64,000 bases of DNA from Escherichia phage EC_OE_11: sequence record OQ108497.1, one strand, 5' to 3'. Below, piece after piece: positions 37,699 to 64,000 of the stretch. A model generated the notes under the pieces. That model had not been told where the DNA came from. It saw only the letters and a program-made list of their open reading frames with translations, and ran no database searches. Made by a program: the position numbers and the translations under genes. Position 1 is the first letter of the stretch. Each line of letters opens with the position of its first letter.

Positions 37699-37845
37699 AT
37701 GAAACAATATGTAATGAGTATCCACACCAAAAACGGCGCTACTGTTACGACTCCGGCACGGTTTGCACTTGTAAACCGTTGCAAGAGACTAAAACGAGAG
37801 TTAAAAAATAACCGTGCAACGGGCTTTAAACGCTGGGGAGGATAA
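37699..37845 (+). CDS. small basic protein (48 aa), not in ORF track
   Basis: ATG 37699 downstream of cassette. Confidence 0.45.
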   Translation: MKQYVMSIHTKNGATVTTPARFALVNRCKRLKRELKNNRATGFKRWGG

Positions 37846-37847
37846 TC

Positions 37848-38108
37848 TTGTTTTTTCTAAAAGTTTGTGATAATGTGATCGCTTTTGAACATGCTACAAC
37901 GTTCGACCTGGCGAGATACGCTATCAGGTTTAAAGATAATGTTTATCCCCGTGCTGGCGGCGGTTACACTATTTTTAATCACCGTAACGCTCAATTAACG
38001 GATATAACTAATCCAGATCCTGGAGTGTATCGCATAGGCTGGCTACCGTCAAAAGACGCTGCAAGCATGTTTAAGGTGTGCAAACTACTAACAGAAGAGG
38101 CGAACTAA
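37848..38108 (+). CDS. hypothetical protein (TTG start as in ORF track; GTG at 37875 alternative)
   Basis: GGAGG SD 7 nt upstream of TTG. Confidence 0.45.
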   Translation: MFFLKVCDNVIAFEHATTFDLARYAIRFKDNVYPRAGGGYTIFNHRNAQLTDITNPDPGVYRIGWLPSKDAASMFKVCKLLTEEAN

Positions 38109-38109
38109 C

Positions 38110-38664
38110 ATGGGGCGTGAATATGTGATCCAGTCCTGGGTAAAGCATGATGCTAATGATCCGCGCATAATACCAGATGACATGATCGATCACATGGTAG
38201 GGTATAGCGGGGAGCAGATAGGAAATCGAGCGGCAAAGAGCAACGGCAACACCAGGACGCGATCCGTTCGCCCTGGATGGCTGGCGAATGGTAACGCTGA
38301 CATTGCAAGCGCCGCAGATCCAAGCGATGACGCTAAAAATAATCCCTTATACAGCATTGATCCGGCTTTTAAGGTGTTAGAAGAGTATCCCGCTAAATTA
38401 GCCGCACTAGATAAGGCATACGAAGAAAAGCGCATGGCATGGACTGTATACAACACCGCTAAAATGGTGCTAGATGCAAAATTGATTAAAGCCCAGGAGA
38501 AGATCAATAAACTTGTTACCATAGCGCAAGAGGAAGACCAGGACTACCAGGAGGAAGCGGAAGAAATCATGCCTACTCTGGAAGAGGAAGAGATCCAGCC
38601 ATACATGCCGACGGAAGAGGAAAAAAGACAAGCCCTAAAAAATTATGAAAATTGCATTGTGTAA
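38110..38664 (+). CDS. hypothetical protein with acidic C-terminal tail
   Basis: 184 aa, coupled. Confidence 0.55.
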   Translation: MGREYVIQSWVKHDANDPRIIPDDMIDHMVGYSGEQIGNRAAKSNGNTRTRSVRPGWLANGNADIASAADPSDDAKNNPLYSIDPAFKVLEEYPAKLAALDKAYEEKRMAWTVYNTAKMVLDAKLIKAQEKINKLVTIAQEEDQDYQEEAEEIMPTLEEEEIQPYMPTEEEKRQALKNYENCIV

Positions 38665-38667
38665 GGC

Positions 38668-38724
38668 TTGACATAGGCAAACAAGCCCCGTAATATGTAC
38701 CACATAAAGCGGGGCAACGCCCCA
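38668..38724 (+). promoter_or_regulatory. promoter + stem-loop cassette (variant)
   Basis: TTGACA-17nt-TAATAT then GGGGC-aac-GCCCC hairpin. Confidence 0.5.
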
Positions 38725-38745
38725 TAAGGTGAAATAAAAAATCAC

Positions 38746-38773
38746 TTGACACCTGAAATCAGTAAGCTATAAT
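38746..38773 (+). promoter_or_regulatory. sigma70-like promoter (no stem-loop)
   Basis: TTGACA-16nt-TATAAT. Confidence 0.55.
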
Positions 38774-38810
38774 GCTTATATAGATTGAAACATTACTAAG
38801 GAATAAAAGC

Positions 38811-38990
38811 ATGGCTATTATTGCAAAGACTGAGATCGTAGGTTTAGATTCTATCATCCTGGCATATGAGGAAGCTATAGAAATGTATGTGGTTTCCTAT
38901 GGTGATTATATCCGTGAATATAAATCTATTGATCTAGCTTTTGAATGCTATATTCGCCAGGTCAATAAAGCATATGATGATTATCGTTAA
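38811..38990 (+). CDS. small hypothetical protein (59 aa), not in ORF track
   Basis: ATG 38811 downstream of tandem promoters. Confidence 0.45.
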   Translation: MAIIAKTEIVGLDSIILAYEEAIEMYVVSYGDYIREYKSIDLAFECYIRQVNKAYDDYR

Positions 38991-39009
38991 AAGTTTTAGT
39001 CTTGTGCTA

Positions 39010-39038
39010 TTGACAACGAACGATAGTACAAGCATAAT
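39010..39038 (+). promoter_or_regulatory. sigma70-like promoter
   Basis: TTGACA-17nt-CATAAT. Confidence 0.5.
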
Positions 39039-39085
39039 AACTTTTATCGGGAATACTCCTAACTAATCAAAAGAGATTAAAGACT

Positions 39086-39451
39086 ATGGCTAAAAATATC
39101 AATGTTTCTGCTTATGCTACCCTGGCTAACACTGCTAAAATTGAACTATCCAGCATTGAAGCGGTACATATTAGCGCCCGTCGCTGGTTTCAAAAGTCTT
39201 ATGGTAATACTTATTTCTCTTTGATGGTTGACGTTGAGATCGGCGGTAAACTGATCGAAGTAGTTAACGTTCCGTTTCAATATGGTTATGGGGATCATTT
39301 TGATACCGTTGCCCTAGAAGAGTTTAGCAAGGTTATCAACCTGGAAGGTAAAGACTTTTCAAATTATGCTTACCTTTCCCGCTTTTGCCGTGATAATGGG
39401 ATCGCTGTATACAGTCATGCAAGCGATGTAAAACGTAAAAAAGATTTATAA
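39086..39451 (+). CDS. hypothetical protein
   Basis: 121 aa. Confidence 0.55.
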   Translation: MAKNINVSAYATLANTAKIELSSIEAVHISARRWFQKSYGNTYFSLMVDVEIGGKLIEVVNVPFQYGYGDHFDTVALEEFSKVINLEGKDFSNYAYLSRFCRDNGIAVYSHASDVKRKKDL

Positions 39452-39457
39452 AAAGCA

Positions 39458-39517
39458 TTGACAGCACGAATAAAAAGCATATAATACTTATATCGAGAGC
39501 GGGAATAGTTCCCGCCT
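39458..39517 (+). promoter_or_regulatory. promoter + stem-loop cassette (variant AGCGGGaatagttCCCGCC)
   Basis: TTGACA-16nt-TATAAT then hairpin. Confidence 0.6.
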
Positions 39518-39539
39518 CACTGAAAAAGAGATTAACATC

Positions 39540-39779
39540 ATGGCTAAATCTAAAATGTACAACGGTCACAAAAATAAAACTCATTGGAATGTAAGCCTTT
39601 GGATTAATAATGATGAATCGTTATACTTATACGCTGTAGGTTTAATAAATGAGTGCGGCAATAAAGATAAAGCGGCGGATCTGATGTGCTACAGATTAAA
39701 ACAGGATGGAATCACTCATACACCTGATGGTTTCAAGTATAGTAAAACTGCAATCCGTGCCGCTATGGTAGGAATGTAA
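39540..39779 (+). CDS. hypothetical protein
   Basis: 79 aa. Confidence 0.55.
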   Translation: MAKSKMYNGHKNKTHWNVSLWINNDESLYLYAVGLINECGNKDKAADLMCYRLKQDGITHTPDGFKYSKTAIRAAMVGM

Positions 39780-39788
39780 TAAAAGCAG

Positions 39789-39848
39789 TTGACAACGTTT
39801 TTTAATCTGGTATAGTTTATCGCATAGGGCGGGAAATGGTTTCCCGCC
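39789..39848 (+). promoter_or_regulatory. promoter + stem-loop cassette (type A)
   Basis: TTGACA-16nt-TATAGT then GGGCGGGaaatggtttCCCGCC. Confidence 0.6.
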
Positions 39849-39870
39849 AAATCAAAGAAAGGTTATCATT

Positions 39871-40098
39871 ATGGCTATCGTTATTGTTCGCGTATCCGGC
39901 ACGGTTGGAATCTCCCAGGTAGTAGCAGTTATCACCGAGAAGAAAGGGGATGATCTTCACTCCTCATTGAATAGCTGGGCGGTCGCTAACTTTGGGCAAT
40001 GGTCGAGCGTTGAGTACATCGAATCCTACCAGGTGCCAACGATTAGCCTGACCGATCTCAACGTTGATCGTCTGTTATGCCTGGATCAATTAAACTAA
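39871..40098 (+). CDS. hypothetical protein
   Basis: 75 aa. Confidence 0.55.
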   Translation: MAIVIVRVSGTVGISQVVAVITEKKGDDLHSSLNSWAVANFGQWSSVEYIESYQVPTISLTDLNVDRLLCLDQLN

Positions 40099-40106
40099 AA
40101 ATAATA

Positions 40107-40164
40107 TTGACAAGACAACTAAAATTAGTAAAATGTAATTCATAGGGCGGCAATAGTGCCGCCC
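40107..40164 (+). promoter_or_regulatory. promoter + stem-loop cassette (type B)
   Basis: TTGACA-16nt-TAAAAT then GGGCGGC-aatagt-GCCGCCC. Confidence 0.6.
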
Positions 40165-40185
40165 CTAGTAAGAGAGATTATCAAA

Positions 40186-40401
40186 ATGGCTAATATCCGC
40201 ACCTTGTTAAAAAATGCAAAGCAAGTTTTATTTTCAGATGACGAGTATTTCAACAAAGACATTACAGGCGTGAAAAATTTAAAAGACGTGAAGGATGTTA
40301 TCGGTATCCGTGGATCTTTACGTAAAGGTGACATATACGGTAACAAGGTGCAATATAAACTGTCAAAAGATTATGATTTTACTTTGACAATTATTTCATA
40401 A
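40186..40401 (+). CDS. hypothetical protein (71 aa)
   Basis: Start moved to ATG 40186 (MANIRTLL). Confidence 0.5.
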   Translation: MANIRTLLKNAKQVLFSDDEYFNKDITGVKNLKDVKDVIGIRGSLRKGDIYGNKVQYKLSKDYDFTLTIIS

Positions 40402-40407
40402 AACTAC

Positions 40408-40470
40408 TTGTAAACCTGGTAAAATAAAGTAAACTATATTCATCAAGGCGGTGGAATAGCCCACCGCCTA
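40408..40470 (+). promoter_or_regulatory. promoter-like + stem-loop cassette (variant GGCGGTGGaatagCCCACCGCC)
   Basis: TTGTAA -35-like, long hairpin, then SD and ATG 40493. Confidence 0.45.
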
Positions 40471-40492
40471 ACAAAGAGAAGAGGAAAATATC

Positions 40493-40663
40493 ATGATCAC
40501 TTTCGCTACCCGTGAAGCCGCTCGCAACGTTGCACGTAAAGTTAACGCCGCAAACCTGGGCGCTACGCTTAAAGCCCCGGTGAAAGATGAATCAGGAAAA
40601 TGGATCTTTCCTGGTCTGCGTCACGCTGATAAGCTGGGAACATTAACGTTAAAAAATAAATAA
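40493..40663 (+). CDS. small hypothetical protein (56 aa), not in ORF track
   Basis: ATG 40493 with GAGGAAAA SD-like. Confidence 0.45.
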   Translation: MITFATREAARNVARKVNAANLGATLKAPVKDESGKWIFPGLRHADKLGTLTLKNK

Positions 40664-40670
40664 TATCCGC

Positions 40671-40729
40671 TTGACAGTAGCATCATTTATAAGTAAAGTA
40701 ACAACAACGGCGGGAAATGGTTTCCCGCC
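40671..40729 (+). promoter_or_regulatory. promoter + stem-loop cassette (type A)
   Basis: TTGACA, -10-like, GGCGGGaaatggtttCCCGCC. Confidence 0.55.
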
Positions 40730-40749
40730 ATCAATAAAGAGATAAGATT

Positions 40750-41109
40750 ATGAAATCAGTAAAAGCAATTAAAACTTACATTGTGTCGGCTATTTCTTTT
40801 GATGGTACTACAACCGAAAAAGAAAAAATCACCGAACTGATGCGCCGTTTTAACTCTGAATACTGGTATCAATCTAATCGTGATCGTTATAATAACAATA
40901 TGGTACAAGCTGTTAAAAGCTGGTTGCAAGGTTTACCGTCAGATATCAATATCGCTTTTAATTATAACGAGATCGATCAATTATTAATTGAATGGAAGTA
41001 CATAAAAGAAACAAGCAAAGAAACAACCGTTACCCGTGAGCGGGAAAATTATTGGTTATATATTGCAAGCATGATCGTAACTTTGGCAAAATATCATAAC
41101 GTAGCGTAA
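40750..41109 (+). CDS. hypothetical protein
   Basis: 119 aa. Confidence 0.55.
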   Translation: MKSVKAIKTYIVSAISFDGTTTEKEKITELMRRFNSEYWYQSNRDRYNNNMVQAVKSWLQGLPSDINIAFNYNEIDQLLIEWKYIKETSKETTVTRERENYWLYIASMIVTLAKYHNVA

Positions 41110-41123
41110 TCGAGAGGAAAAAC

Positions 41124-41261
41124 ATGAACGCATCACAGCAGATCGAAAAATTCAACCGCAACAAAGCGCGTAAAGATTGGAACGAAGAGATCACCAAGAA
41201 AGGCGACAAGCGGAACAAAACAAAGAGAGATCGCAGCAGCAAAAGATACTGGAACGAATAA
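41124..41261 (+). CDS. small basic protein (45 aa), not in ORF track
   Basis: ATG 41124 with GAGAGG SD; K/R-rich. Confidence 0.4.
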   Translation: MNASQQIEKFNRNKARKDWNEEITKKGDKRNKTKRDRSSKRYWNE

Positions 41262-41263
41262 CA

Positions 41264-41290
41264 AAAAAGGGCGCAATAAGCGCCCTTTTA
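41264..41290 (+). terminator. intrinsic terminator
   Basis: GGGCGC-aataa-GCGCCC + TTTT. Confidence 0.75.
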
Positions 41291-41379
41291 GCTTATATAG
41301 GGGCTTGTTAGTTATAGGCAATGGTAACGCCAGGATAAGCCTATAAACCACGTTAGACAGCTTTACAGGAGCTTTAAAA

Positions 41380-41562
41380 ATGAAATTAGACGAAATAAGC
41401 AAGGCACTAGCCCAGGGGCAAAGGTTATGCGCCCGATATCGTGATCAATATGGCTTTATAACTAGCGGCGTGATCCTGGGGATTGAAGACAATAAAATTT
41501 TTATTGACACGTGGAAAAACGTTGTATATAGTGACAATATAATCTCAATAAAACATATATGA
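41380..41562 (+). CDS. hypothetical protein
   Basis: 60 aa. Confidence 0.5.
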   Translation: MKLDEISKALAQGQRLCARYRDQYGFITSGVILGIEDNKIFIDTWKNVVYSDNIISIKHI

Positions 41563-41570
41563 GGCAAGAA

Positions 41571-41972
41571 ATGAAAAAATTATTGATCGCTGGTTTACTC
41601 TCTTTTGGTATGGTTGGAACATCTAGCGCGGCGATATCCTCCACAGTAGCAGAATTAAGCGCCGTTGATGCAATGGAAAACGTCATGATCATTAATAATG
41701 CGATCCCCGATGAAATCATGGAGGATTCACACATGATCGCTTATGGTGCTATTACACAACTGACGGCAAAAATAGATAAATCTATTGTTAATGGCTTAAA
41801 TGAAGATGTACCATGCGAAATTATTACCAGTGTGCTCACTACTCAAAATTTTACGCCGTGGTTAAAAAGTATTCAAAAAGTACACAGTACAGCCGCAGAT
41901 CGTAGCAATGAAAAACTAGTGTCAGCACTTGCAACGTATACCCTAGCAAAATGTACTGAAATAAAAGATTGA
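41571..41972 (+). CDS. secreted protein (signal peptide)
   Basis: MKKLLIAGLLSFGMVGTSSA signal; start at 41571 with GAGG SD (ORF-track start 41559 also possible). Confidence 0.5.
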   Translation: MKKLLIAGLLSFGMVGTSSAAISSTVAELSAVDAMENVMIINNAIPDEIMEDSHMIAYGAITQLTAKIDKSIVNGLNEDVPCEIITSVLTTQNFTPWLKSIQKVHSTAADRSNEKLVSALATYTLAKCTEIKD

Positions 41973-42019
41973 CAACATAGAAAGCACGTTATAAGATACA
42001 CACAACAAAGGAGAACTAC

Positions 42020-42322
42020 ATGAACGGCATAGCTAAAACGTTTTTTCTTTTTTCTGGTGTAAATGATCCATCAATAAAAGTCGATAGCGTAAAAGAAAAC
42101 AATACTATCACCGCTAAATTATTTCAAGATGAAACAAATAACGTGCTAATCATTAATCTTAAAGAAATAACAAAAGGTTATTATACTATTGCTTACCATG
42201 CGATCTATAATGCTGATACTAGTGAGGAAGTGCAAACAAGCAACAACGAAAGCGCGGCGCTACCTGGTGATCTGGTGCTGGGCGTTATCAGTTTAATTGT
42301 CAATGATTTTTTTAAGGAGTAA
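42020..42322 (+). CDS. hypothetical protein
   Basis: 100 aa. Confidence 0.5.
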   Translation: MNGIAKTFFLFSGVNDPSIKVDSVKENNTITAKLFQDETNNVLIINLKEITKGYYTIAYHAIYNADTSEEVQTSNNESAALPGDLVLGVISLIVNDFFKE

Positions 42323-42326
42323 AACC

Positions 42327-42422
42327 ATGCCCTATTTACATTTATTTTTCGGTATCTTATTGACAGGATCTTTTTTCTTCTGTATGCTTGTTTCTATTGT
42401 AAACCACGTTTTAAGACATTAA
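42327..42422 (+). CDS. tiny membrane peptide (31 aa), speculative
   Basis: AAGGAG SD 7 nt upstream of ATG 42327. Confidence 0.35.
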   Translation: MPYLHLFFGILLTGSFFFCMLVSIVNHVLRH

Positions 42423-42431
42423 GGAAACAGC

Positions 42432-42551
42432 ATGAAAATTATTCCCGTACAGTATAGCGTAATAAATCCAGCATATGAGGAAGGAAGGAAAACAAGCATG
42501 GCTTTATGTTGTATTGCTACTATAACCATGTTGTTATACATTGTGTTTTAA
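42432..42551 (+). CDS. small membrane peptide (39 aa), speculative
   Basis: ATG 42432; hydrophobic C-terminus. Confidence 0.25.
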   Translation: MKIIPVQYSVINPAYEEGRKTSMALCCIATITMLLYIVF

Positions 42552-42580
42552 TAGGTTTTATAGTTGTACGCTTTAAAGGC

Positions 42581-42608
42581 TTGACAATTTTTTGTTATGC
42601 TTTAAAAT
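42581..42608 (+). promoter_or_regulatory. sigma70-like promoter
   Basis: TTGACA-16nt-TAAAAT. Confidence 0.5.
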
Positions 42609-42651
42609 ATATCTTGAAAACGGCAAAGGCCGCAAACAAAAGGGTAAAATT

Positions 42652-42975
42652 ATGAAATCTGTGATCGGTGTTTATTTGGATAACTCTGATTTTTTCTATC
42701 ATCGCGCTCGTTTCCTTGATGCGATTGAAATGATAGAATCAGGCTTTAAAGAGTATCGCCTTGCACATGATGACCTGGAAGCATTACAGGACAATAGTGT
42801 TTTTACATTGCAAGCTAAAGCACTATGCAAAAGCCGGATCGACATTGCAAGCAAAAAGATAGAACGCGGCATGTCCTGGTTGCGCACCGCAGAAATCAAC
42901 ATGGGGCAATGGTACGGCGAAAACTTAGAAAATAAACACACTTTTGTAAATGTAGAAAATATTAAAGATTATTGA
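42652..42975 (+). CDS. hypothetical protein (107 aa)
   Basis: Start moved to ATG 42652 downstream of promoter. Confidence 0.5.
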   Translation: MKSVIGVYLDNSDFFYHRARFLDAIEMIESGFKEYRLAHDDLEALQDNSVFTLQAKALCKSRIDIASKKIERGMSWLRTAEINMGQWYGENLENKHTFVNVENIKDY

Positions 42976-43037
42976 TTGACAGCACACCTGATAAGTAATA
43001 TATTGTATCTCATAGAGCGGGGAAATGGTTTCCCCGC
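42976..43037 (+). promoter_or_regulatory. promoter + stem-loop cassette (type A variant)
   Basis: TTGACA, TAATAT-like -10, AGCGGGGaaatggtttCCCCGCC. Confidence 0.55.
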
Positions 43038-43057
43038 CTTAACAGAAGAGATAAGAT

Positions 43058-43342
43058 ATGAAGATCACAAAAGCACTTTCCAACTATGCAGCACGTCGCG
43101 GCTTATGTTTAACCGTTGAAAACCTGGGGAAAGAAGATTTTTTGTGCTTTTGGGAGCTTGAGAATGATAATGAGTGGATCTTCTCTTATTCTATCTGCGA
43201 AGATCAAAACGGTTGTTTATTAACCTGGCGCGGTAATATCTATTTACCGCAAGAAATCAAAGAGGAACTACCAGGCACGATCATGACTGAGAAACAGCTT
43301 AAGGAAGTGATCAATTTTGTAGGGCAAAACATTAAAAAATAA
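43058..43342 (+). CDS. hypothetical protein
   Basis: 94 aa. Confidence 0.55.
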   Translation: MKITKALSNYAARRGLCLTVENLGKEDFLCFWELENDNEWIFSYSICEDQNGCLLTWRGNIYLPQEIKEELPGTIMTEKQLKEVINFVGQNIKK

Positions 43343-43343
43343 T

Positions 43344-43404
43344 TTGACACTAGGCAAACAACGTAGTAAAGTTTATCACATAGGGCGGGAAATGGTTTCC
43401 CGCT
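43344..43404 (+). promoter_or_regulatory. promoter + stem-loop cassette (type A)
   Basis: TTGACA then GGGCGGGaaatggtttCCCGCT. Confidence 0.55.
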
Positions 43405-43426
43405 CACAGTAGAAGAGAAACAAATC

Positions 43427-43597
43427 ATGATCCCAACTATGTTTTATGTATCGCGCAAAGGTCACAATATTTTTTGGTCTGAAGATTTAAATGAAGCCAT
43501 GACGTTTGCCCGTGATCGTGTTGCTATTGGTGGCGTTAATATCACTGTAACCGATGAAAATGGCATTGAATACTATAACGGCGACGATGAAGAGTAA
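43427..43597 (+). CDS. small hypothetical protein (56 aa), not in ORF track
   Basis: ATG 43427 downstream of cassette. Confidence 0.45.
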   Translation: MIPTMFYVSRKGHNIFWSEDLNEAMTFARDRVAIGGVNITVTDENGIEYYNGDDEE

Positions 43598-43604
43598 TTA
43601 ATGA

Positions 43605-43630
43605 GGCGGGGGGAGTATTCCCCGCCGTCA
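43605..43630 (+). promoter_or_regulatory. orphan GC stem-loop without obvious promoter
   Basis: GGCGGGGGG-agtatt-CCCCGCC between coupled genes. Confidence 0.4.
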
Positions 43631-43645
43631 ATAAAGAGATAAATC

Positions 43646-43915
43646 ATGAAAATATCATTAGACGTTGCAATCAAGGCCATCGAATCCGGTTACATCCTGG
43701 TAAAAGATGATAAGGCTAAAACCGTGCACCACGTTAACAAGGAAACAGGCGAAAGCATGATCACATATAAAGCCGCCTACTTTCTCCAATCAGTAGCAGA
43801 TCCGCGCGTACAACGCCAGGTTACAGCGGCTATTGCTAAAAAATTATGTGCTTTACAGGGCACAAGTTTTAACGAGATCGCCCCGTGTTTTGACTGGTCG
43901 AGCTTGAAAAAATAG
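43646..43915 (+). CDS. hypothetical protein
   Basis: 89 aa. Confidence 0.55.
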   Translation: MKISLDVAIKAIESGYILVKDDKAKTVHHVNKETGESMITYKAAYFLQSVADPRVQRQVTAAIAKKLCALQGTSFNEIAPCFDWSSLKK

Positions 43916-43916
43916 T

Positions 43917-43972
43917 TTGACAACAATTATAAATCGGGTAGAATGTATTTCGTAGGGCGGCAATAGTGCCGC
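43917..43972 (+). promoter_or_regulatory. promoter + stem-loop cassette (type B)
   Basis: TTGACA-16nt-TAGAAT then GGGCGGCaatagtGCCGC. Confidence 0.6.
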
Positions 43973-43995
43973 TCACAACTAAAAGAGAAATCATC

Positions 43996-44190
43996 ATGGC
44001 GCTTAAAAAATTAACAAGCAATACTCGTTGGGATGAAATCGACGGGGAAGTATACATTTTCGCCCGTAAACCAGGTGATCAAAAATGGTCAAAGGCTTTT
44101 ACTTGCCACCCTGCAACAATAGATCTAATAAAAAGTAAAGGTTTACGTGAAGCAGTAGCAAGGAGCTTACTGATCCCTTATAAAAAATAG
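43996..44190 (+). CDS. hypothetical protein (64 aa)
   Basis: Start moved to ATG 43996. Confidence 0.5.
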   Translation: MALKKLTSNTRWDEIDGEVYIFARKPGDQKWSKAFTCHPATIDLIKSKGLREAVARSLLIPYKK

Positions 44191-44191
44191 T

Positions 44192-44250
44192 TTGACAATA
44201 CGCGGTTATCTGGTAAAGTGTACGACATAGGGCGGGGCAATAAGGCAACG
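44192..44250 (+). promoter_or_regulatory. promoter + imperfect stem-loop cassette
   Basis: TTGACA-16nt-TAAAGT then GGGCG...CGCCC. Confidence 0.5.
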
Positions 44251-44271
44251 CCCACTAATGAGGGTAAAATC

Positions 44272-44376
44272 ATGTTAGAGAAAATTTTCACGGTTGTAGT
44301 AGTGGGCCTGGCGTTATCGGTTGGAGTGATTGCAACTATGGCTAACATGATCCTATCTTCCCACGGTATTGGATAA
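44272..44376 (+). CDS. small membrane peptide (34 aa), not in ORF track
   Basis: ATG 44272; single TM helix. Confidence 0.4.
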   Translation: MLEKIFTVVVVGLALSVGVIATMANMILSSHGIG

Positions 44377-44386
44377 GGTGAATCAA

Positions 44387-44602
44387 ATGATCACGAATAA
44401 GACAGGTAAAACAGAATTTTTACGCGGCTTGCAAATAGGTAAACCTGAAATCTGGCATTGCACTAAAACACCACGTGACGAAATGAAAGATTTCACCGCT
44501 ACTTTACAACGTGTTAAAATATCTATCACACAGAAAAAAGCCTTGTTAGTAGTAGAAAACGAGATCCCGCAAACCATTATTATTGTTGAGCGTACAGCAT
44601 GA
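44387..44602 (+). CDS. hypothetical protein (71 aa)
   Basis: ATG 44387 with AAGGTG SD; ORF track used upstream TTG. Confidence 0.5.
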   Translation: MITNKTGKTEFLRGLQIGKPEIWHCTKTPRDEMKDFTATLQRVKISITQKKALLVVENEIPQTIIIVERTA

Positions 44603-44985
44603 AAACAGAAATCATTATTGAAATCATCAACGGTTATAAAGAAGCCTTTATTTTTGCTGAATCCGCCAGGGATCATGAAGGTAATTTTATTGATAACTTA
44701 GACGATTATGATTTTTCAGATCAAGCCCATCAGCGGATTATACGTGACGTGGCGGCGTTTTGTGATGCCAATGATGCCGCTATCTCTGAGGCAATGAGCG
44801 ACGGCGCAACAGCCAACCAGATCGGGAATGATTTACATTTTACCCGTAATAGTCACGGCGTAGGCTTTTGGGATCGCCCTGAAATATACACTACTAACAC
44901 CGCCAACCGCTTAACTAATGCAGCTAAATTGATGCCATCGGTGCATGCTTACATTGGTGAAGATAATTTGATTTATATTGAATAA
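44599..44985 (+). CDS. hypothetical protein
   Basis: 128 aa, ATGA coupling. Confidence 0.55.
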   Translation: MKTEIIIEIINGYKEAFIFAESARDHEGNFIDNLDDYDFSDQAHQRIIRDVAAFCDANDAAISEAMSDGATANQIGNDLHFTRNSHGVGFWDRPEIYTTNTANRLTNAAKLMPSVHAYIGEDNLIYIE

Positions 44986-44991
44986 AAAGTA

Positions 44992-45050
44992 TTGACACCG
45001 ATCCCCAATATGGTATGATTTACCACGTAGGCGGGAAATGGTTTCCCGCC
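44992..45050 (+). promoter_or_regulatory. promoter + stem-loop cassette (type A)
   Basis: TTGACA-16nt-TGGTATGAT (extended -10) then GGCGGGaaatggtttCCCGCC. Confidence 0.6.
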
Positions 45051-45073
45051 AGGTAATCAAAAAGGTAAATACT

Positions 45074-46610: not shown

Positions 46611-46630
46611 AATAATGATAATCATTCTTA
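46611..46630. promoter_or_regulatory. Fur-box-like motif AATAATGATAATCATTCTTA
   Basis: Second copy about 55 bp downstream. Confidence 0.45.
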
Positions 46631-47165: not shown

Positions 47166-47511
47166 TAATGTTTGGAACATTGGCTATAATATAAGCTACA
47201 TATAATAAGCTATTCAATAATAAACATCGTGAATAATGACATTGAAATGAATAATGACACTGATGATCATAATGCGCCACCTTCCAGGGGGCGCTATGTG
47301 AACACAAAGAAATCTTTCTTGTCAAGAAAAATATCACCATTATTGCGCAAAATTATTTATATCTGAATAGATGATTTTTCATACTATTGCCCCTATACAC
47401 TACCTCATTTGTTGCAATGTATCCCCCTATTTGTTGAGCCTATTCTCTTAAAAGCGCAATAAATCAGAATTATCTTGATTTTTAGTGGATTTTATAGTAT
47501 AGAAAATATGC

Positions 47512-47529
47512 AAATGATAATCATTATCA
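47512..47529. promoter_or_regulatory. Fur-box-like motif AAATGATAATCATTATCA
   Basis: Near-consensus Fur-box-like palindrome. Confidence 0.45.
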
Positions 47530-59713: not shown

Positions 59714-60001
59714 ATGGAACTAGTACAAGAAGTTTATGAAAAACTAAAAGAAGAGAATCTTGATTGGCCTGAACATGCTCTTATTGTCGTCAAAGATACT
59801 AATGGTGAAATAAAATTCTCAAGTGTAAGTGAAGATGATGTTGTTTTAAGTCCTACAGGATATTATATGAGAGGTGTTACGTGTCTATTCAACACCAAAG
59901 TGTATCCTGAAGTTAAACTTAGTTACGGTGAACCTGATCATCCAGAAATCGTTACACGTAATGAATATGAAAATTATTATTTTGCTCGTGAAAGCAAATA
60001 A
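59714..60001 (+). CDS. hypothetical protein
   Basis: 95 aa, GAGGAGG SD. Confidence 0.55.
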   Translation: MELVQEVYEKLKEENLDWPEHALIVVKDTNGEIKFSSVSEDDVVLSPTGYYMRGVTCLFNTKVYPEVKLSYGEPDHPEIVTRNEYENYYFARESK

Positions 60002-60009
60002 GGAAAACT

Positions 60010-60333
60010 ATGCAAAAAATAAACACTGGTTCTCGTCCTAAACAGAAGCAAACAAAAGCAAGGGTGTCTTATATTGATAACTCTTGCTATAATTTCAAAA
60101 ATGTTAAAGAAGTCATCATTGATGAAAAAGAAGGTTTGATTCACATTTCATCTGAACGTTTGAAAGGTAGTGTTACTCTTCGTGAGAATGTATCTATACC
60201 TATGAAAGTTGTGGCTACACTCTGTGTTGATAAACCAGATGTTGCTAACTATTATGTGTTCCGTGATAATCGTATTTCATTACATAACAAGATTTTTAAA
60301 TCTTCGCACGTTAAAACAAAACACATTGTATAA
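60010..60333 (+). CDS. hypothetical protein
   Basis: 107 aa. Confidence 0.55.
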   Translation: MQKINTGSRPKQKQTKARVSYIDNSCYNFKNVKEVIIDEKEGLIHISSERLKGSVTLRENVSIPMKVVATLCVDKPDVANYYVFRDNRISLHNKIFKSSHVKTKHIV

Positions 60334-60337
60334 CGCA

Positions 60338-60361
60338 TAAACCCGCTTCGGCGGGTTTTCT
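60338..60361 (+). terminator. intrinsic terminator (duplicate of 33586-33610)
   Basis: AAACCCGC-ttcg-GCGGGTTTTCTTGTAT. Confidence 0.8.
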
Positions 60362-60418
60362 TGTATATATGCTCTTTATATGTTATAAACACTTTTAGCA
60401 TAAACAATAGGAGGTATT

Positions 60419-60640
60419 ATGTCTGTAGTTGTAGAAGGTAGTATTGGTTTCTTAGTAGATAACCCTCACCCTTTCGTGGTTAAGGTTCATATTCAAGAAA
60501 AGGTAAGCAACAATACGTGGTTGTGCTTGTTAGATAGTAAGATACACTCTTATACAGAGGTTTATCTTCACACTTGGCAAATTGGTACGATAACAGCAGA
60601 GGATGAATTGATAATTGAACTATATGAACGAGATTTATAG
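60419..60640 (+). CDS. hypothetical protein
   Basis: 73 aa, AGGAGG SD. Confidence 0.55.
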   Translation: MSVVVEGSIGFLVDNPHPFVVKVHIQEKVSNNTWLCLLDSKIHSYTEVYLHTWQIGTITAEDELIIELYERDL

Positions 60641-60715
60641 ATGACTTTACTAGAGAGTATTGTAGTGTTAATCATCTTTATCATTGTTGTCATAGGATAT
60701 TTTACAGAAGACTAA
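60641..60715 (+). CDS. tiny membrane peptide (24 aa), speculative
   Basis: ATG right after upstream stop; single hydrophobic helix. Confidence 0.25.
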   Translation: MTLLESIVVLIIFIIVVIGYFTED

Positions 60716-60716
60716 A

Positions 60717-60753
60717 ATAAAGCCCCTAGAAGCGATTCTAGGGGCTTTTGTTT
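60717..60753 (+). terminator. strong intrinsic terminator ending the plus-strand block
   Basis: AGCCCCTAGAA-gcga-TTCTAGGGGCT + TTTTGTTTG. Confidence 0.85.
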
Positions 60754-60815
60754 GCATTAGGTAGGGAAACGTATTACTAAAATAAAAAGTGCGTTAGAAT
60801 GCGTTACAGAAGGTT

Positions 60816-61073
60816 TTAGGAATGCATAAAATCTTCTTCAGGGCAGGTTGAGAGATAAGAGATGCACGTTGGGACAACAACAACATTATCTTTAAGGTTT
60901 GCAACCAGTCCTTTTGTAATCCCAGCCACTGCCCCGTTAATATCTGCTTGACGGATACCAAAACCTTGTTGTGCGGATAGATAACAAAATCCTTCACCTT
61001 TCTGTTGATTGTTATTGAAGTAATAAACGTAGTGCATCATAAAATGGTCTTTAACGATTTGTTCTGTGGTCAT
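60816..61073 (-). CDS. hypothetical protein
   Basis: 85 aa; ATG 61073 with AGGAG SD. Confidence 0.5.
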   Translation of the reverse strand: MTTEQIVKDHFMMHYVYYFNNNQQKGEGFCYLSAQQGFGIRQADINGAVAGITKGLVANLKDNVVVVPTCISYLSTCPEEDFMHS

Positions 61074-61090
61074 AATATTCTCCTATAAGA

Positions 61091-61109
61091 AAAGGGGCTT
61101 TCGCCCCCT
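61091..61109 (-). terminator. intrinsic terminator downstream of Sir2-like gene
   Basis: aaGGGGC-tttc-GCCCCc then TTTTCTTA on minus strand; sequence family shared with 132-150. Confidence 0.6.
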
Positions 61110-61117
61110 TGGTTAAG

Positions 61118-61930
61118 TTATTTAGTCAAATGATCTTCTATCATTTTTATGAAAGCAGGATTGCTAAAAGCATCTGCGGCCTTTTCTCGATAAACAAAGA
61201 CTCCTCTATCTTCGTAAAGAAGAGTTTCTTCGTAATTAATTCCTGGGTTAACAACGATCATTTTTGTACCCATATTAAGTGCAGGGAATAATTCCCAATT
61301 AAAATTGATAACTTGGTTTGAACATCCTACTACTACAACCAAATCTTGCATGGTCAAAGTATCAAACAAGTGAGCCATATCTGCATACAAAGGTGCAGCC
61401 TCACCAAAAAATACAACATTAGGCTTCACCCAGTTGTAATCATCTATGTTTATACTGTTGTAACCAATATCTACCAGTGTTTTGTAATCCCCAGGATGCA
61501 TACGGTAAACTATTTCAGGAAGATATCCGTGCACGTGAATAACCGAATCTCTGTCTACACCTGCTCGCTCTAGTAGATCATCGACGTTTGTTGTCAAGTT
61601 TACTACTTGGTTAGGATATTCCTTAAACCACTTTGCTATTTGAATATGTGCAGCATTAGGTTGTACATCTTTAAGCTCAACACGTCTTTTGTTATAAAAT
61701 TCGTGTGTTTTGGCATACAAATCCATACCGTTCTCGTCTACACCACCAACCACGGGAAGATCTGGAGATGTTCTAACACGATAACCTGCTTGGAAAGCTC
61801 CAATATCGCAGACCTCTTCTAAATCATATTCTTCCCATAAGGCACGACCACTATCGGTGTCTGTTCGGAATGTTCGAATCCCACTGTCTGCACTTAAACC
61901 TGCGCCACTGACAAAAATTACTCTTCGCAT
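61118..61930 (-). CDS. Sir2-family protein (sirtuin-like NAD-dependent deacylase or ADP-ribosyltransferase)
   Basis: VIFVSGAGLSADSGIRTFR, PNAAHIQIA, TTNVDDLLERAG...HVHG, VVFFGE, VVVGCSNQV; no obvious Zn-binding CxxC pairs. Confidence 0.75.
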   Translation of the reverse strand: MRRVIFVSGAGLSADSGIRTFRTDTDSGRALWEEYDLEEVCDIGAFQAGYRVRTSPDLPVVGGVDENGMDLYAKTHEFYNKRRVELKDVQPNAAHIQIAKWFKEYPNQVVNLTTNVDDLLERAGVDRDSVIHVHGYLPEIVYRMHPGDYKTLVDIGYNSINIDDYNWVKPNVVFFGEAAPLYADMAHLFDTLTMQDLVVVVGCSNQVINFNWELFPALNMGTKMIVVNPGINYEETLLYEDRGVFVYREKAADAFSNPAFIKMIEDHLTK

Positions 61931-62472
61931 TCAATATCCTCTTCGTAATCATCATCCCAAGAAGATGCATCGTAACGCTCTTCCTCTTCGAAATCCCAAT
62001 TAATTTCTACTCCAAAATCTAAAAACAATTTAACAATGTTTTCTGTAGAATAGTATTTATCATAAGCGTTAGCTAGTTCCCAATACTTGTCACTCAATTT
62101 TTTATAAGTAGGATCATTATAGTCATAATCTACTTTATAACCATAGTCATACATCTCTTGTTCAGCTTTAAGCATAGCTTCTGGTGTAAGAAGATTAGGG
62201 AACGGACGATTTCTTTCTTTTAACTTAGAAGTAATCCAGTTTGCAACATTCGCCACTTCACCATCTCGATTATCACCTAAACAACTTGCATAATCTCCAT
62301 CTTCGTAAGTGCCTAAATCCCCACTGACTTCATGTACAATAGATGAATACGATCCACACGTTTCACAATCTGAAAAAGTGTCTACTGTTGTAATATCAAT
62401 AGATAAAACTGGTAAAGCCATAGCTTCTTTCACACAAGCCTCCTCATATAATAACATGTCATCAAAACCCAT
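61918..62472 (-). CDS. hypothetical acidic protein (184 aa)
   Basis: Start moved to ATG 62472 with GGAGG SD. Confidence 0.5.
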   Translation of the reverse strand: MGFDDMLLYEEACVKEAMALPVLSIDITTVDTFSDCETCGSYSSIVHEVSGDLGTYEDGDYASCLGDNRDGEVANVANWITSKLKERNRPFPNLLTPEAMLKAEQEMYDYGYKVDYDYNDPTYKKLSDKYWELANAYDKYYSTENIVKLFLDFGVEINWDFEEEERYDASSWDDDYEEDIECEE

Positions 62473-62490
62473 ATATCCTCCAGACAAATA

Positions 62491-62509
62491 AAGCCCCTGC
62501 TTGGGGCTT
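62491..62509 (-). terminator. intrinsic terminator-like hairpin
   Basis: aaGCCCC-tgctt-GGGGCtt then TATTTGT on minus strand. Confidence 0.5.
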
Positions 62510-62526
62510 TGGTTAAGTTTTACGGA

Positions 62527-63138
62527 TTATACCAGACTTTTAAGGTACTTGTCAAGGGCTTCTTGATCACCTTGACAAACATAGCAACGGAAGTCTTGAG
62601 CAGAAGGTTCTTTGTCCTCGTCCCAATCCCAGTAGACAGTACCTTTATAGCGTGAGCCTGGGAACTCGAAGTATGCTACATGAGTAATATGGTGTGGGCC
62701 ACCCCAAAACTCTGTAAAAGTAAATTGAGGATACGCGGCTTTAACTGTATTTTCAAACCAAGTTTTACGATCTAATGCTTCGTTTATAAAATAAGCATGG
62801 CGTTCCATTTCATCCCAATCTTTCCAAACGCATTTTTCATCCAGAGAGAAAACAAAATTTTCACTGTTAAACTCGTCTGTATCTGATTCCAAAATATCAT
62901 AGTCATGTGCACTAGGTATCCACCACCCAGCTTCTAATAGTGCTTTTGCAGGTACAAAACCTTTTTCAGCGTATTGATCAAATTCTTTTACTCTACGTAC
63001 AGTGCAGTATTCATCTTCACCACCAATGTCCAATAGACAAGCGCCTCTGCGTCTTGCTGCAAGACCATGTGTATCAAAAACTACAACGCTACCTTCACCA
63101 TCTTCACGATCTACTTGATATGCAACTTTTTGAGTCAT
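62527..63138 (-). CDS. hypothetical protein
   Basis: 203 aa; GGGGG SD. Confidence 0.55.
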   Translation of the reverse strand: MTQKVAYQVDREDGEGSVVVFDTHGLAARRRGACLLDIGGEDEYCTVRRVKEFDQYAEKGFVPAKALLEAGWWIPSAHDYDILESDTDEFNSENFVFSLDEKCVWKDWDEMERHAYFINEALDRKTWFENTVKAAYPQFTFTEFWGGPHHITHVAYFEFPGSRYKGTVYWDWDEDKEPSAQDFRCYVCQGDQEALDKYLKSLV

Positions 63139-63139
63139 A

Positions 63140-63262
63140 TTACCCCCAATGTATATGGGAAATTACCCAAAAGATAAATTCCCAAAAACACCAACCAAGA
63201 AAAGTTAATGGAATTATAAAAGCTATCAGAGCAGTCTTCCAGCCTTTCCACAATGTTTCCAT
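63140..63262 (-). CDS. small membrane peptide (40 aa), not in ORF track
   Basis: ATG 63262 with GGGGGAATA SD, overlaps upstream stop by 1 nt. Confidence 0.4.
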   Translation of the reverse strand: METLWKGWKTALIAFIIPLTFLGWCFWEFIFWVISHIHWG

Positions 63263-63999
63263 TATTCCCCCATAGATTTAAGAATATGTGCAATAACAGG
63301 TATAGTCCAACCATTGCCTAACATCTTATATGCTTGTGTGTTACTACTCACTTTAAAGTAATCATCTGGAACACCTTGTAAGCGGCAACACTCTTTAACC
63401 GTTAACTTTCTATAATGTACGCCTTCACTCAATTTTTCAAAGGCATCTAGATATCTTCCAGGTGGAATGTAAGCTAGTAGTACGTCTTTAGGCACAGTCG
63501 TGAGGCAACGAGTTTTTTCACTGTCCTGAACTTCCAAACAATGTACCAAACGATCAGTTTTAGATGTATTACGTTTGCCATTTTCATTAATTCTACGCCC
63601 ATATATTGCTGCCGGATAAAAAGCCAGTTGTCTGCGACTCTTTTCAAAATACTGTTCTATATTACCACCTTTGGCATAATTTGCATCTATGCAATAAGCC
63701 TTATCTCTGTCTACGATACTATCATCTTCAATGATATCTTGCAACACTTCATTGGTAATATCCCAAGGTTTTATTTCCCAATTGCACCAGTATAAACGTT
63801 GTCTATTCTGTGCCGTGAAATCTGCGGAGTTAATGAATACGGGATCAACACCTAAGTAACTTGTGATCACGTTTTCCCACTCCACCTTCATCTTAACGTT
63901 TTCAAGCATGAACTTAACATTAGGGTTAAACTTTTTAATATGTTCAAGAATTTCAACATATTCAAAGAACAGTTTTGATCGCGGGTCTTCAAAGTTCAA
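63262..63999 (-). CDS. DNA (cytosine-5)-methyltransferase, C-terminal part (5' end beyond window)
   Basis: Motif VI FMLENVKMK, motif VIII TAQNRQRLY, motif X MLGNGWTIPVIAHIL; motifs I and IV (PCQ) expected upstream. Confidence 0.7.
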   Translation of the reverse strand: MNFEDPRSKLFFEYVEILEHIKKFNPNVKFMLENVKMKVEWENVITSYLGVDPVFINSADFTAQNRQRLYWCNWEIKPWDITNEVLQDIIEDDSIVDRDKAYCIDANYAKGGNIEQYFEKSRRQLAFYPAAIYGRRINENGKRNTSKTDRLVHCLEVQDSEKTRCLTTVPKDVLLAYIPPGRYLDAFEKLSEGVHYRKLTVKECCRLQGVPDDYFKVSSNTQAYKMLGNGWTIPVIAHILKSMGE

Positions 64000-64000
64000 A

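Follow-up and report, generated by a model that had tools for sequence, protein, structure and literature searches.

Phage-encoded sirtuins have been described as a "distinct clade of sirtuins" by Iyer et al. 2022 (PMC9503650), who documented the conserved gene neighbourhoods of this clade and predicted a Tpt1-like role in RNA repair (section 3.7.3). The loss of the zinc ligands had been noted in silico for the Sir2 proteins of KVP40, phiSt2 and phiGrn1 by Skliros et al. 2016 (PMC5107563), who also read the KVP40-type homolog as a deacetylase and noted that the KVP40 protein was initially described as an NAD+ hydrolase. A further group of sirtuins, the SirTMs, was defined by Rack et al. 2015 (PMC4518038) by three features: QG instead of the catalytic HG, the motif GVGx[NT]TP, and a macrodomain gene that is fused to the sirtuin gene or lies next to it. 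Its members possess a zinc-coordinating domain. Our literature searches found no published biochemical assay of any member of the phage sirtuin clade. Here, we analyse the sirtuin encoded in a 64,000-nucleotide stretch of Escherichia phage EC_OE_11 (OQ108497.1), hereafter the window.

The sirtuin gene and its relatives

The gene, which occupies positions 61118..61930 on the minus strand (stop codon included) like all the features of this locus given below, has an ATG start and encodes a protein of 270 aa. A Shine-Dalgarno sequence (GAGGA) precedes its start by 8 nt, and the gene shares 13 nt with the end of the upstream ORF. The product scores 80.5 bits (E=1.9e-22) with the Pfam SIR2 family (PF02146), for which the gathering threshold is 24, and matches PHROG 2162 "Sir2" over its full length (residues 1-269, E=1.5e-105). 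As judged by sequence, this is a genuine sirtuin gene of a phi92-like E. coli phage, which bears out the first-pass annotation of a Sir2-like protein with clear core motifs, all of which could be located in the translation. It is also an ordinary ortholog of an already annotated gene: phi92 gp038 and Bas61 bas61_0186 are orthologs of its product, and phi92-like phages, in which the gene is annotated as Sir2, show 97-99% nucleotide identity across it. Identity of the protein to its counterparts in nt-1, rV5-like and T5-like phages is 37-60%. Sirtuin genes of the PHROG 2162 type are present in ~980 phage records from several families, their carriers being T5-like, rV5-like, phi92-like, KVP40-like and jumbo phages, i.e., virulent phages of enterobacteria and vibrios.

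The best solved relative by sequence is E. coli CobB (1s5p, E=1.9e-18), followed by Sir2Af2/Sir2Af1 and then SIRT5. Structure prediction with AF2 gave a pLDDT of 90.9 when run with a 92-sequence alignment, which is the model used here, compared with 40.8 for a single-sequence run. When this model was compared by Foldseek with the PDB, CobB ranked first (E=7.8e-18, TM 0.84 by target), followed by Sir2Af1 and SIRT5, ahead of classes I and U. In both the sequence and the Foldseek rankings, the nearest relatives are thus the class III enzymes CobB, Sir2Af1 and SIRT5. The curated CobB models (NCBIfam NF040867 and NF001755, PRK00481) were not reached, with 106 versus 243 bits and 86 versus 320 bits.

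The phage protein resembles CobB and SIRT5 in its NAD loop, the N and D of TQNID, HG, the FGE loop, G-x-S, size and domain order, as well as in the acyl-pocket Tyr/Arg pair and the small residue at the A76/A86 position. In contrast to these enzymes, to which it is ~27% identical, it is strongly acidic, has Y142, H145, I160 and D163 where they have the zinc Cys, and shows Q->T in TQNID, Ala->Cys in the pocket, VIN instead of VYP, and an insertion of 26 residues. With the remainder of the phage Sir2/CobB clade (PHROG 2162; KVP40, phiSt2, phiGrn1), it shares the loss of the zinc Cys and the full-length profile match. However, phi92/phAPEC8-type proteins carry the insertion, and the phi92-type gene lies apart from the RNA ligase/kinase/phrog_1479 cluster and is coupled instead to the gene for a subfamily-specific acidic protein.

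Catalytic core and small module

Among 92 homologs sharing 55-92% identity, 44 columns are invariant, including every NAD-binding and catalytic residue. On these grounds, the product is probably NAD-dependent and catalytically active. The sirtuin signature (GAGxSxxSGIxxFR, the N and D of TQNID, and HG) is represented by G9-R22, N115, D117 and H134-G135, with T114 at the position of Q. The NAD-binding loop, GAGLSADSGIRTFR (residues 9-22; 61865..61906), aligns to GAGISAESGIRTFR of CobB; S13, S16, F21 and R22 are invariant, while G9, A10, G11 and G17 reach 90% conservation or more across the 92 homologs. TTNVD, the equivalent of TQNID (residues 113-117; 61580..61594), contains invariant N115 and D117, which align to N141 and D143 of SIRT5, and T114, which aligns to Q140, a position held by T, A or S in other phage lineages. 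The catalytic H134-G135 (61526..61531), found in 92/92 homologs, aligns to H158 of SIRT5 and to the HMHG of CobB. Residues 202-204 form a GCS within VVVGCSNQV, which is of the canonical G-x-S type.

The acyl pocket is equally well defined. C41 (61808..61810) does not vary among the homologs (92/92) or across the six phage lineages, and occupies the position of CobB A76 and SIRT5 A86, the former being the site mutated to A76G in engineered CobB chains. Y79-N-K-R82 (YNKR; 61685..61696) is the class III YxxR motif, in which the invariant Y79 and R82 align to Y92 and R95 of CobB (checked on the Y92A mutant chain 6rxs) and to Y102 and R105 of SIRT5. Hence, the combination that marks class III, YxxR together with a small residue where SIRT5 has A86, is present as C41/Y79/R82, all three invariant. 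KPNVVFFGE (residues 169-177; 61400..61426) comprises the acyl-lysine tunnel and the FGE substrate loop. K169, P170, N171, V172, F174, F175 and E177 are invariant in the 92 homologs, V172 aligning to V187 of CobB, and F175-G176-E177 to F223-G224-E225 of SIRT5. Between C41 and Y79, the helical small module carries the insertion of 26 residues (residues 47-72; 61715..61792), which was delimited by alignment, is modelled with a pLDDT of ~90, and is missing in rV5-, T5-, nt-1- and GAP32-type homologs and in CobB and SIRT5.

As for the zinc site, a four-Cys site is impossible because the whole protein contains just two Cys, C41 and C203, and a search of the protein for CxxC...CxxC, which provides the structural Zn(Cys)4 of sirtuins, found none. 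The absence of the canonical zinc cysteines, reported in the first-pass annotation, is therefore upheld. Alignment to CobB, SIRT5 and zinc-containing relatives places the ligands at Y142, H145, I160 and D163, the very columns where zinc-containing relatives have their CxxC...CxxC. Alignment and the AF2 model concur on a zinc-less small β module devoid of Cys (residues 136-168; 61427..61525), with strands predicted at 135-143, 151-154 and 167-172 (pLDDT ~95) and conserved aromatic residues at Y136, Y157, Y165 and W167. In the aligned homologs, the ligand columns hold Y/V/I (142), variable residues (145), I/V/F (160) and D/E/N (163). We considered an alternative metal site formed by H145 and D163, which was rejected because neither column is conserved.

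The number of Cys in the module is 0-1 in the 92 aligned homologs and 0-2 among the 120 homologs listed, none of which has the tetrad, and the rV5-like, T5-like, nt-1, GAP32 and Turkey5 homologs have no Cys there. On this sequence evidence, the loss is clade-wide rather than a local mutation. A rough NJ tree of cluster representatives groups zinc-less sequences together, with at least one second zinc-less group. As a trait of the clade, the loss is already in the literature (predicted in silico for KVP40-type proteins in 2016) and is not new here. It implies that a canonical-type sirtuin can drop the structural zinc site yet keep the module and every catalytic residue. Such a zinc-free enzyme would be useful for sirtuin engineering and for telling which features of sirtuins are truly essential. 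The first-pass annotation had also set out what would make this an ordinary housekeeping-type sirtuin, namely an intact zinc module together with typical CobB deacetylase residues. Of these two, the intact zinc module is missing, while the typical deacylase residues of CobB and SIRT5 are all present.

Proposed transcription unit and genomic surroundings

Directly upstream, and translationally coupled to the sirtuin gene, is an ORF encoding a very acidic protein (phrog_9509 by PHROG match; 61918..62487), whose likely true start is the ATG at 62472, located behind a Shine-Dalgarno sequence (GGAGGA). This family is confined to Stephanstirmvirinae, where it is always found directly 5' of Sir2 (phi92, Bas61, anhysbys, TSP7_1), and a Pfam search with the ORF returned a sub-threshold match to PheRS_B1 alone. 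Further upstream is a putative promoter with a perfect sigma-70 consensus (TTGACA-18-TATAAT with TG, 12/12 in a consensus scan; 62526..62555), followed downstream by a 5' hairpin at 62490-62510. The same layout of promoter, hairpin and Shine-Dalgarno sequence is seen repeatedly in the early region. At the other end, a terminator-like hairpin with a T run lies directly 3' of the Sir2 stop (61092..61110). The 11-mer AACTTAACCAA precedes this hairpin, and exact copies of it are found within the window only there and at 62509-62519. From this arrangement, we infer that the promoter drives a two-gene unit composed of phrog_9509 and Sir2.

The neighbours of the sirtuin gene are phrog_9509, phrog_8514, phrog_15991 and a Dcm methylase, and when its three immediate neighbours were scanned against Pfam and PHROG, no function emerged. 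The macro and NADAR genes, which the first-pass annotation had rightly placed elsewhere in the genome, are at 14935-15768 (minus strand) and 34820-35371 (plus strand), respectively. The macro gene is the only one, and it lies in a TerC/PRTase_3/HAD/AAA cluster ~45 kb from Sir2.

Candidate activities

Our preferred reading, to which we give roughly even chances, is that the protein is an early-expressed, NAD+-dependent lysine deacylase of a class III-like (CobB/SIRT5-like) type, whose small domain does not depend on zinc. In this scheme, NAD+ would be taken up by the Rossmann cleft and the acyl-lysine would enter the V172/F174 tunnel, where its carbonyl oxygen would attack C1' of the nicotinamide ribose. 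Nicotinamide would then depart, and H134 would activate a ribose hydroxyl, leading to the release of 2'-O-acyl-ADP-ribose and free lysine. The invariant C41/Y79/R82 triad would offer both space and binding for negatively charged acyl groups (of the succinyl, malonyl or glutaryl type) besides acetyl; the Tyr/Arg pair of the class III pocket is described in the literature as required for desuccinylation. The β module would be kept, held in place of Zn(Cys)4 by a hydrophobic and aromatic mini-core, predicted to comprise Y136, Y142, Y157, I160, Y165 and W167, so that the enzyme should fold without zinc. In line with this, the ligand columns (Y/V/I and I/V/F) and the confident model of the module would support a zinc-free deacylase. 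A host-type sigma-70 promoter appears to drive the gene together with that of its acidic partner, so early activity of the enzyme is probable, with host or phage proteins as its targets. The clade is acidic throughout (median pI 4.9, net charge -6 to -20), which would suit basic proteins as substrates more than RNA. In jumbo phages, a Nudix gene follows Sir2 and NAMPT/NMNAT genes are nearby, a context expected of an NAD+ consumer yielding nicotinamide and an ADP-ribose derivative.

Several observations count against a deacylase. Deviations found across the clade include Q->T/A/S in TQNID, VYP->VIN after G-x-S and the zinc loss itself. Scores with the CobB models are far under the cut-offs, and in Vequintavirinae and jumbo phages the sirtuin gene is found in an RNA end-healing context. 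Neither a substrate nor an acyltransferase partner emerged for the proposed deacylase, and its benefit to the phage is not obvious because host CobB restricts T4 and lambda, according to the literature.

The main rival, the prediction made by Iyer et al. 2022, to which we attach only a modest likelihood, is that the sirtuin works on RNA in the manner of Tpt1/KptA, transferring ADP-ribose from NAD+ onto the 2'-phosphate at the junction of a repaired tRNA or other RNA. H134 would then activate the ribose 2''-OH, so that ADP-ribose 1'',2''-cyclic phosphate is released and a 2'-OH remains; products would be cleared by Nudix, MazG, phrog_1479 (cREC) or phosphoesterase partners. The 1',2'-cyclic chemistry of sirtuins parallels that of Tpt1, and an anionic group could be bound by Y79 and R82. 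The Y/R pair of SIRT5, however, binds the distal carboxylate of the substrate and not the attacking group. The RNA 2'-phosphotransferases offer at most a possible analogy of function (ADP-ribosyl transfer from NAD+ with subsequent 1'',2''-cyclisation, proposed in PMC9503650), with a fold unrelated to that of sirtuins and with sequence similarity neither expected nor found.

Genomic context speaks for an RNA substrate. The neighbourhoods described by Iyer et al. (RNA ligase, kinase, phosphoesterase and phrog_1479, which is probably their cREC) were reproduced in our analysis. In rV5-like APECc02, Sir2 lies between RNA ligase/phrog_1479 and MazG, adjoining tRNA genes. The Mydovirus KNP2 gene is flanked by a kinase-like ATPase and a DNA ligase, with an RNA ligase and a phosphoesterase upstream, and the GAP32 gene directly adjoins a Nudix-phrog_1479 fusion. 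When the rV5 and KNP2 neighbours of Sir2 were used as queries, tblastn and phmmer returned no match in either the window or 124 kb of sequence from related genomes; homologs were found in the remaining part of the Bas61 genome, outside the window. The phi92-like genome, as represented by Bas61, therefore keeps homologs of all these partners, but its Sir2 is ~30 kb from the RNA-repair cluster, in a two-gene unit of its own. Co-occurrence is also partial. The sirtuin is found in 289 Salmonella-phage records (those listed being ~110-kb T5-like phages) against 16 for this type of RNA ligase, while the ligase is found in 177 Pseudomonas and 122 Streptomyces phage records, genera that are not among the main Sir2 carriers. 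Moreover, the strong acidity of the clade is unlike that of nucleic-acid-binding enzymes, and the hydrophobic acyl-lysine tunnel and the peptide-binding FGE loop are invariant. In its broadest form, built on analogy, the proposal would be that the clade is no protein deacylase but a zinc-free Tpt1 analogue that strips 2'-phosphates from RNA while tRNA damaged by nucleases is being repaired, the ADP-ribose and nicotinamide it yields being recycled by phage macro, Nudix or MazG, and NARP1-like enzymes. Although we hold this to be unlikely, removal of RNA 2'-phosphates would make it the first sirtuin with an RNA substrate. Deciding between deacylation and RNA-end processing would clarify how large phages use NAD+, alongside the defence of the NAD+ pool against host immunity.

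If the preferred reading as a deacylase is set aside, the intact NAD+ site could also serve an NAD+ glycohydrolase or another NAD+-manipulating effector, which, like defence-type Sir2, would deplete host NAD+, exclude other phages or destroy NAD-derived immune signals. Phages of this group do devote genes to NAD+ metabolism, with NARP1-like genes in Bas61 and NAMPT/NMNAT close to the GAP32 gene, but an NAD+ drain would work against the phage's own NAD+ reconstitution genes. Defence-type and SIR2_2 sirtuins (ThsA, DSR, Sir2-HerA, FAM118) are likewise zinc-free and NAD+-consuming. In contrast to the phage protein, however, they lack the whole β module and the substrate tunnel and are fused to or paired with sensor domains, whereas the phage protein is a single-domain enzyme of 270 aa that stands alone, with no sensor or partner domain. 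There is no similarity to defence Sir2 models, the PADLOC match reaching only 13.7 bits (E=0.0067). Membership of the defence-type group (ThsA, DSR, Sir2-HerA, SPARSA; SIR2_2) was excluded for want of a meaningful PADLOC match and in view of the predicted β module and the single domain, and we consider such an effector role quite improbable.

Very improbable, too, is the link drawn in the first-pass annotation to ADP-ribosylating sirtuins that partner with macro domains. On this view, the product would be a SirTM-like protein mono-ADP-ribosyltransferase, with its mark removed by either the macro or the NADAR protein of the phage. The genome has both genes, protein ADP-ribosylation is known for some sirtuins, and the Sir2 fold and use of NAD+ are common to both groups. 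Yet the features proper to SirTMs (QG, GVGx[NT]TP, the zinc domain and macro linkage) are all missing from the phage protein, which has an invariant HG (92/92 homologs) and VVVGCSNQV where the GVGx[NT]TP motif would be, and whose gene is neither adjacent nor fused to a macro gene, the nearest being the distant one in the TerC cluster. Zinc loss is itself no marker of SirTMs, because SirTMs retain zinc. SirTM entries are absent among the 50 best Foldseek matches listed, where the structural neighbours are class III deacylases. SirTM identity was rejected on account of HG, the GCS motif and the distance of the macro gene.

Loss of the zinc site, which the literature regards as needed for the canonical sirtuin fold and activity, might have destabilised the protein and left it a decaying or catalytically dead remnant or a binding decoy. 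This is scarcely credible, given the 44 invariant columns that include every catalytic residue in 92 homologs, retention of the gene in ~980 phage records, a confidently modelled β module and the measured transcription of the phiSt2 homolog (Skliros et al. 2016, PMC5107563).

A sirtuin module without zinc ligands

The window comes from the genome of a phi92-like E. coli myovirus (Stephanstirmvirinae, Justusliebigvirus), and positions 60000-64000 share 97-99% identity with 92CQ, EmilieFrey (Bas61), and phi92. The Sir2 ORF (61118-61930, minus strand) encodes 270 residues. It scores well over threshold with Pfam SIR2 (E=1.9e-22) and aligns end to end with PHROG 2162 "Sir2" (E=1.5e-105). Its orthologs phi92 gp038 and bas61_0186 already carry a Sir2/sirtuin annotation, as do genes in hundreds of phage genomes, and Iyer et al. 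(2022, PMC9503650) described the clade as a distinct one. By tblastn, homologs occur in 983 phage records, with identities of about 52-60% in T5-like phages, 57% in Mydovirus, 48% in rV5-like phages, 37% in Vibrio nt-1, and 30-34% in the jumbo phages GAP32 and Turkey5.

The first-pass annotation had reported that the zinc cysteines are absent, and this is borne out. The whole sirtuin has only two Cys, C41 and C203, and the stretch from the catalytic HG to the FGE loop, YLPEIVYRMHPGDYKTLVDIGYNSINIDDYNWV, has none. We placed the zinc-ligand columns by comparison with E. coli CobB, human SIRT5 (a sequence whose identity to PDB chains was confirmed), and zinc-containing metagenomic relatives, which have CxxC...CxxC in the matching columns. 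All three comparisons agree on Y142, H145, I160, and D163.

Loss of the ligands is clade-wide. The small β module (residues 136-168) has 0-1 Cys in 92 aligned homologs, at most two among the 120 homologs listed, and none in the rV5-like, T5-like, nt-1, GAP32, and Turkey5 proteins. Among 50%-identity cluster representatives, those matching best (roughly E < 1e-33) never show an intact tetrad and carry no more than two Cys in the module, intact zinc modules being found only from E ~1e-32 onward. In a rough NJ tree of these representatives, from which the module columns were left out, the query belongs to a large block of which nearly all members are zinc-less, and a second zinc-less group is placed apart from it. 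Of the columns once filled by ligands, 142 is Y/V/I, 160 is I/V/F, and 145 and 163 are polar and variable; no substitute metal site is conserved in them across the alignment of homologs. Four module aromatics, Y136, Y157, Y165, and W167, are conserved. Since a confident AlphaFold2 model (92-sequence alignment; pLDDT 90.9, pTM 0.87) keeps three β-strands there (pLDDT ~95), the module is predicted to be retained, the zinc site alone being gone. A 2016 in silico study had already described the KVP40/phiSt2 homologs as lacking the site, and it lists T5, GAP32, and others as carriers of the KVP40-type protein (Skliros et al., PMC5107563). We add that the loss spans the whole clade, phi92 type included, and that the module itself is apparently kept.

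Catalytic residues and predicted activity

In the 92 homologs (55-92% identity), the NAD loop (S13, S16, F21, R22), P91/N92/H95, N115, D117, H134-G135, K169-E177 (tunnel and FGE loop), G202/S204, and N228 show no or almost no variation. C41, invariant throughout the lineages, occupies the position of CobB A76 and SIRT5 A86, the latter having a role in the acyl pocket. Y79/R82 fall in the columns of SIRT5 Y102/R105 and CobB Y92/R95, as cross-checked with 6rxs, an engineered CobB chain carrying Ala in place of Y92, and a role of this class III Tyr/Arg pair in desuccinylation has been described. Judged from the alignments, C41/Y79/R82 is the small-residue/Tyr/Arg signature of class III (CobB/SIRT5/Sir2Af1) sirtuins for acidic acyl groups; its invariance, with a pocket Cys universal in the clade, is also new here. 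The best fold matches are, in rank order, CobB (Foldseek E=7.8e-18, TM 0.84 by target), Sir2Af1, and SIRT5, all class III; by sequence Sir2Af2 is also high, beside CobB as best match. NCBIfam scores fall far short of the cut-off, however, so the phage sirtuin is no CobB equivalog. The Q of the canonical TQNID motif is T, A, or S across the clade, VYP after the canonical G-x-S motif becomes VIN, and CobB and SIRT5 are without the 26-residue helical-module insertion of phi92/phAPEC8-type proteins.

No assay of any clade member was found in the literature searched. In silico, Skliros et al. (2016, PMC5107563) proposed a deacetylase activating host Acs, and Iyer et al. (2022, PMC9503650) a Tpt1-like enzyme that strips 2'-phosphates from RNA. 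We favor an NAD+-dependent lysine deacylase, to which we give about an even chance, because the full deacylase set, acyl-lysine tunnel, FGE peptide loop, and class III triad are invariant, deacylases are its closest kin in both sequence and fold, acidity is uniform in the clade (median pI 4.9), and the sirtuin and RNA ligase co-occur only in part. The sirtuin is in 289 Salmonella-phage records (those listed being ~110-kb T5-like genomes) vs. 16 for this RNA ligase type, which is found in many Pseudomonas and Streptomyces phages, neither genus being among the main Sir2 carriers. This partial co-occurrence also speaks against a Tpt1-like RNA-repair role, which we consider unlikely but not negligible because the link between Sir2 and phrog_1479 recurs in very distant phages. 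Host CobB has been described to restrict T4 and lambda, so what a phage would gain from a deacylase is not obvious.

Sir2 is flanked by RNA ligase, phrog_1479, and MazG in rV5-like phages. In Mydovirus KNP2 its neighbors are DNA ligase and a kinase-like ATPase, and genes for RNA ligase and a phosphoesterase lie upstream. In GAP32 and Turkey5 a Nudix gene lies immediately 3' of Sir2; the GAP32 one is fused to phrog_1479, with NAMPT and NMNAT genes also near. Such pyrophosphatase neighbors fit the deacylase and RNA-repair models alike, since each chemistry yields an ADP-ribose derivative. All rV5/KNP2 partner homologs, and a NARP1-like gene pair, are kept in the phi92-like genome, ~30 kb from Sir2 and beyond the window; the departure of the phi92-type gene from the RNA-repair cluster is a further addition. 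In the Bas61 record, 131.7-142.0 kb holds these homologs of the rV5-like and Mydovirus flanking genes (MazG-like, DNA ligase, polynucleotide kinase, RNA ligase, phosphoesterase, and cREC-like phrog_1479) and, adjoining a block of 14 tRNA genes, a PRPP-synthetase-like and NAMPT-like pair that resembles NARP1. No tRNA genes were found across the entire 64-kb window.

SirTM and defense-type sirtuins

The link to SirTM, which the first-pass annotation had suggested, does not hold. SirTMs are defined by QG for HG, a GVGx[NT]TP motif, and an adjacent or fused macrodomain (Rack et al. 2015, PMC4518038), none of which the phage sirtuin has, and zinc loss is no pointer to them since they keep a zinc-coordinating small domain (same source). 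The macro (14935-15768, minus strand) and NADAR (34820-35371, plus strand; E=2.3e-36) genes, already noted as not adjacent, are 45 kb and 26 kb away. A defense-type Sir2 is ruled out, since such domains are described as missing the entire β module, which is predicted to be kept here, and a PADLOC profile search of the sirtuin gave no meaningful match.

The macro gene belongs not with the sirtuin but to a minus-strand cluster (13400-18718) with TerC membrane protein (13400-14377), ComF-like PRTase_3 (15644-16501), HAD hydrolase (16494-17168), and AAA ATPase (17558-18718) genes, which resembles bacterial Ter-associated "nucleoside-like metabolite" clusters. The NADAR gene is directly 3' of that of a 390-aa protein combining CapR, treble-clef zinc-finger, and T5orf172 domains, the two together spanning 33647-35371 (plus strand); the Bas61 annotation places an FtsH-like protease just 5' of this pair.

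The predicted Sir2 transcription unit and other features

On the minus strand, a perfect-consensus σ70 promoter (62555-62526) heads a two-gene unit that continues with a 5' hairpin, a GGAGGA Shine-Dalgarno, the gene of a very acidic protein (ATG at 62472), Sir2, whose ATG gives a 13-nt overlap with the stop codon of the acidic gene, and, directly 3' of the Sir2 stop, a hairpin plus T run. The product of the first gene (phrog_9509) is restricted to Stephanstirmvirinae, directly upstream of Sir2 every time. Since the promoter-hairpin-SD layout recurs ~10 times in the window's early region, we infer that the unit is expressed early by host RNA polymerase. The layout is of the type of about ten cassettes at 36820-45054 (plus strand), ahead of small early genes, in which a TTGACA-type promoter is followed by a CATAGGGCGG(G/C)...CCGCC hairpin ahead of a Shine-Dalgarno and ATG (CATAGGGCGG: 9 observed vs. 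1.05 expected). The 11-mer AACTTAACCAA has two exact copies in 64 kb (61109-61119 and 62509-62519, minus strand), immediately 5' of the GC-rich hairpins bracketing the unit, a possible trace of cassette relocation.

The early small-gene region (38001-44000) has an AT skew (0.09-0.20) unusually high, and a G+C (0.38-0.43) raised, vs. the rest of the window. With GATAATGATAATCATTATC, the E. coli Fur box consensus, we obtained five matches at ≤3 mismatches vs. 0.03 expected from shuffles; the Fur-box-like sequences (35831-35902, 46611-46629, 47510-47528) are all non-coding, and could represent iron-regulated phage promoters or Fur titration. Three tandem copies of a non-coding, AT-rich unit of ~70-79 nt (35570-35790, plus strand) adjoin a Fur-like inverted repeat (35812-35921). 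A Dcm-like C5 cytosine DNA methyltransferase gene (63262-63999, minus strand; Pfam E=1.9e-20) is cut by the window end. Finally, the MG0656xx "Campylobacter phage" records A150, A145, C3, and A110a (~146 kb), with 97% identity to this E. coli phi92-like sequence, are probably mislabeled or contaminant genomes.
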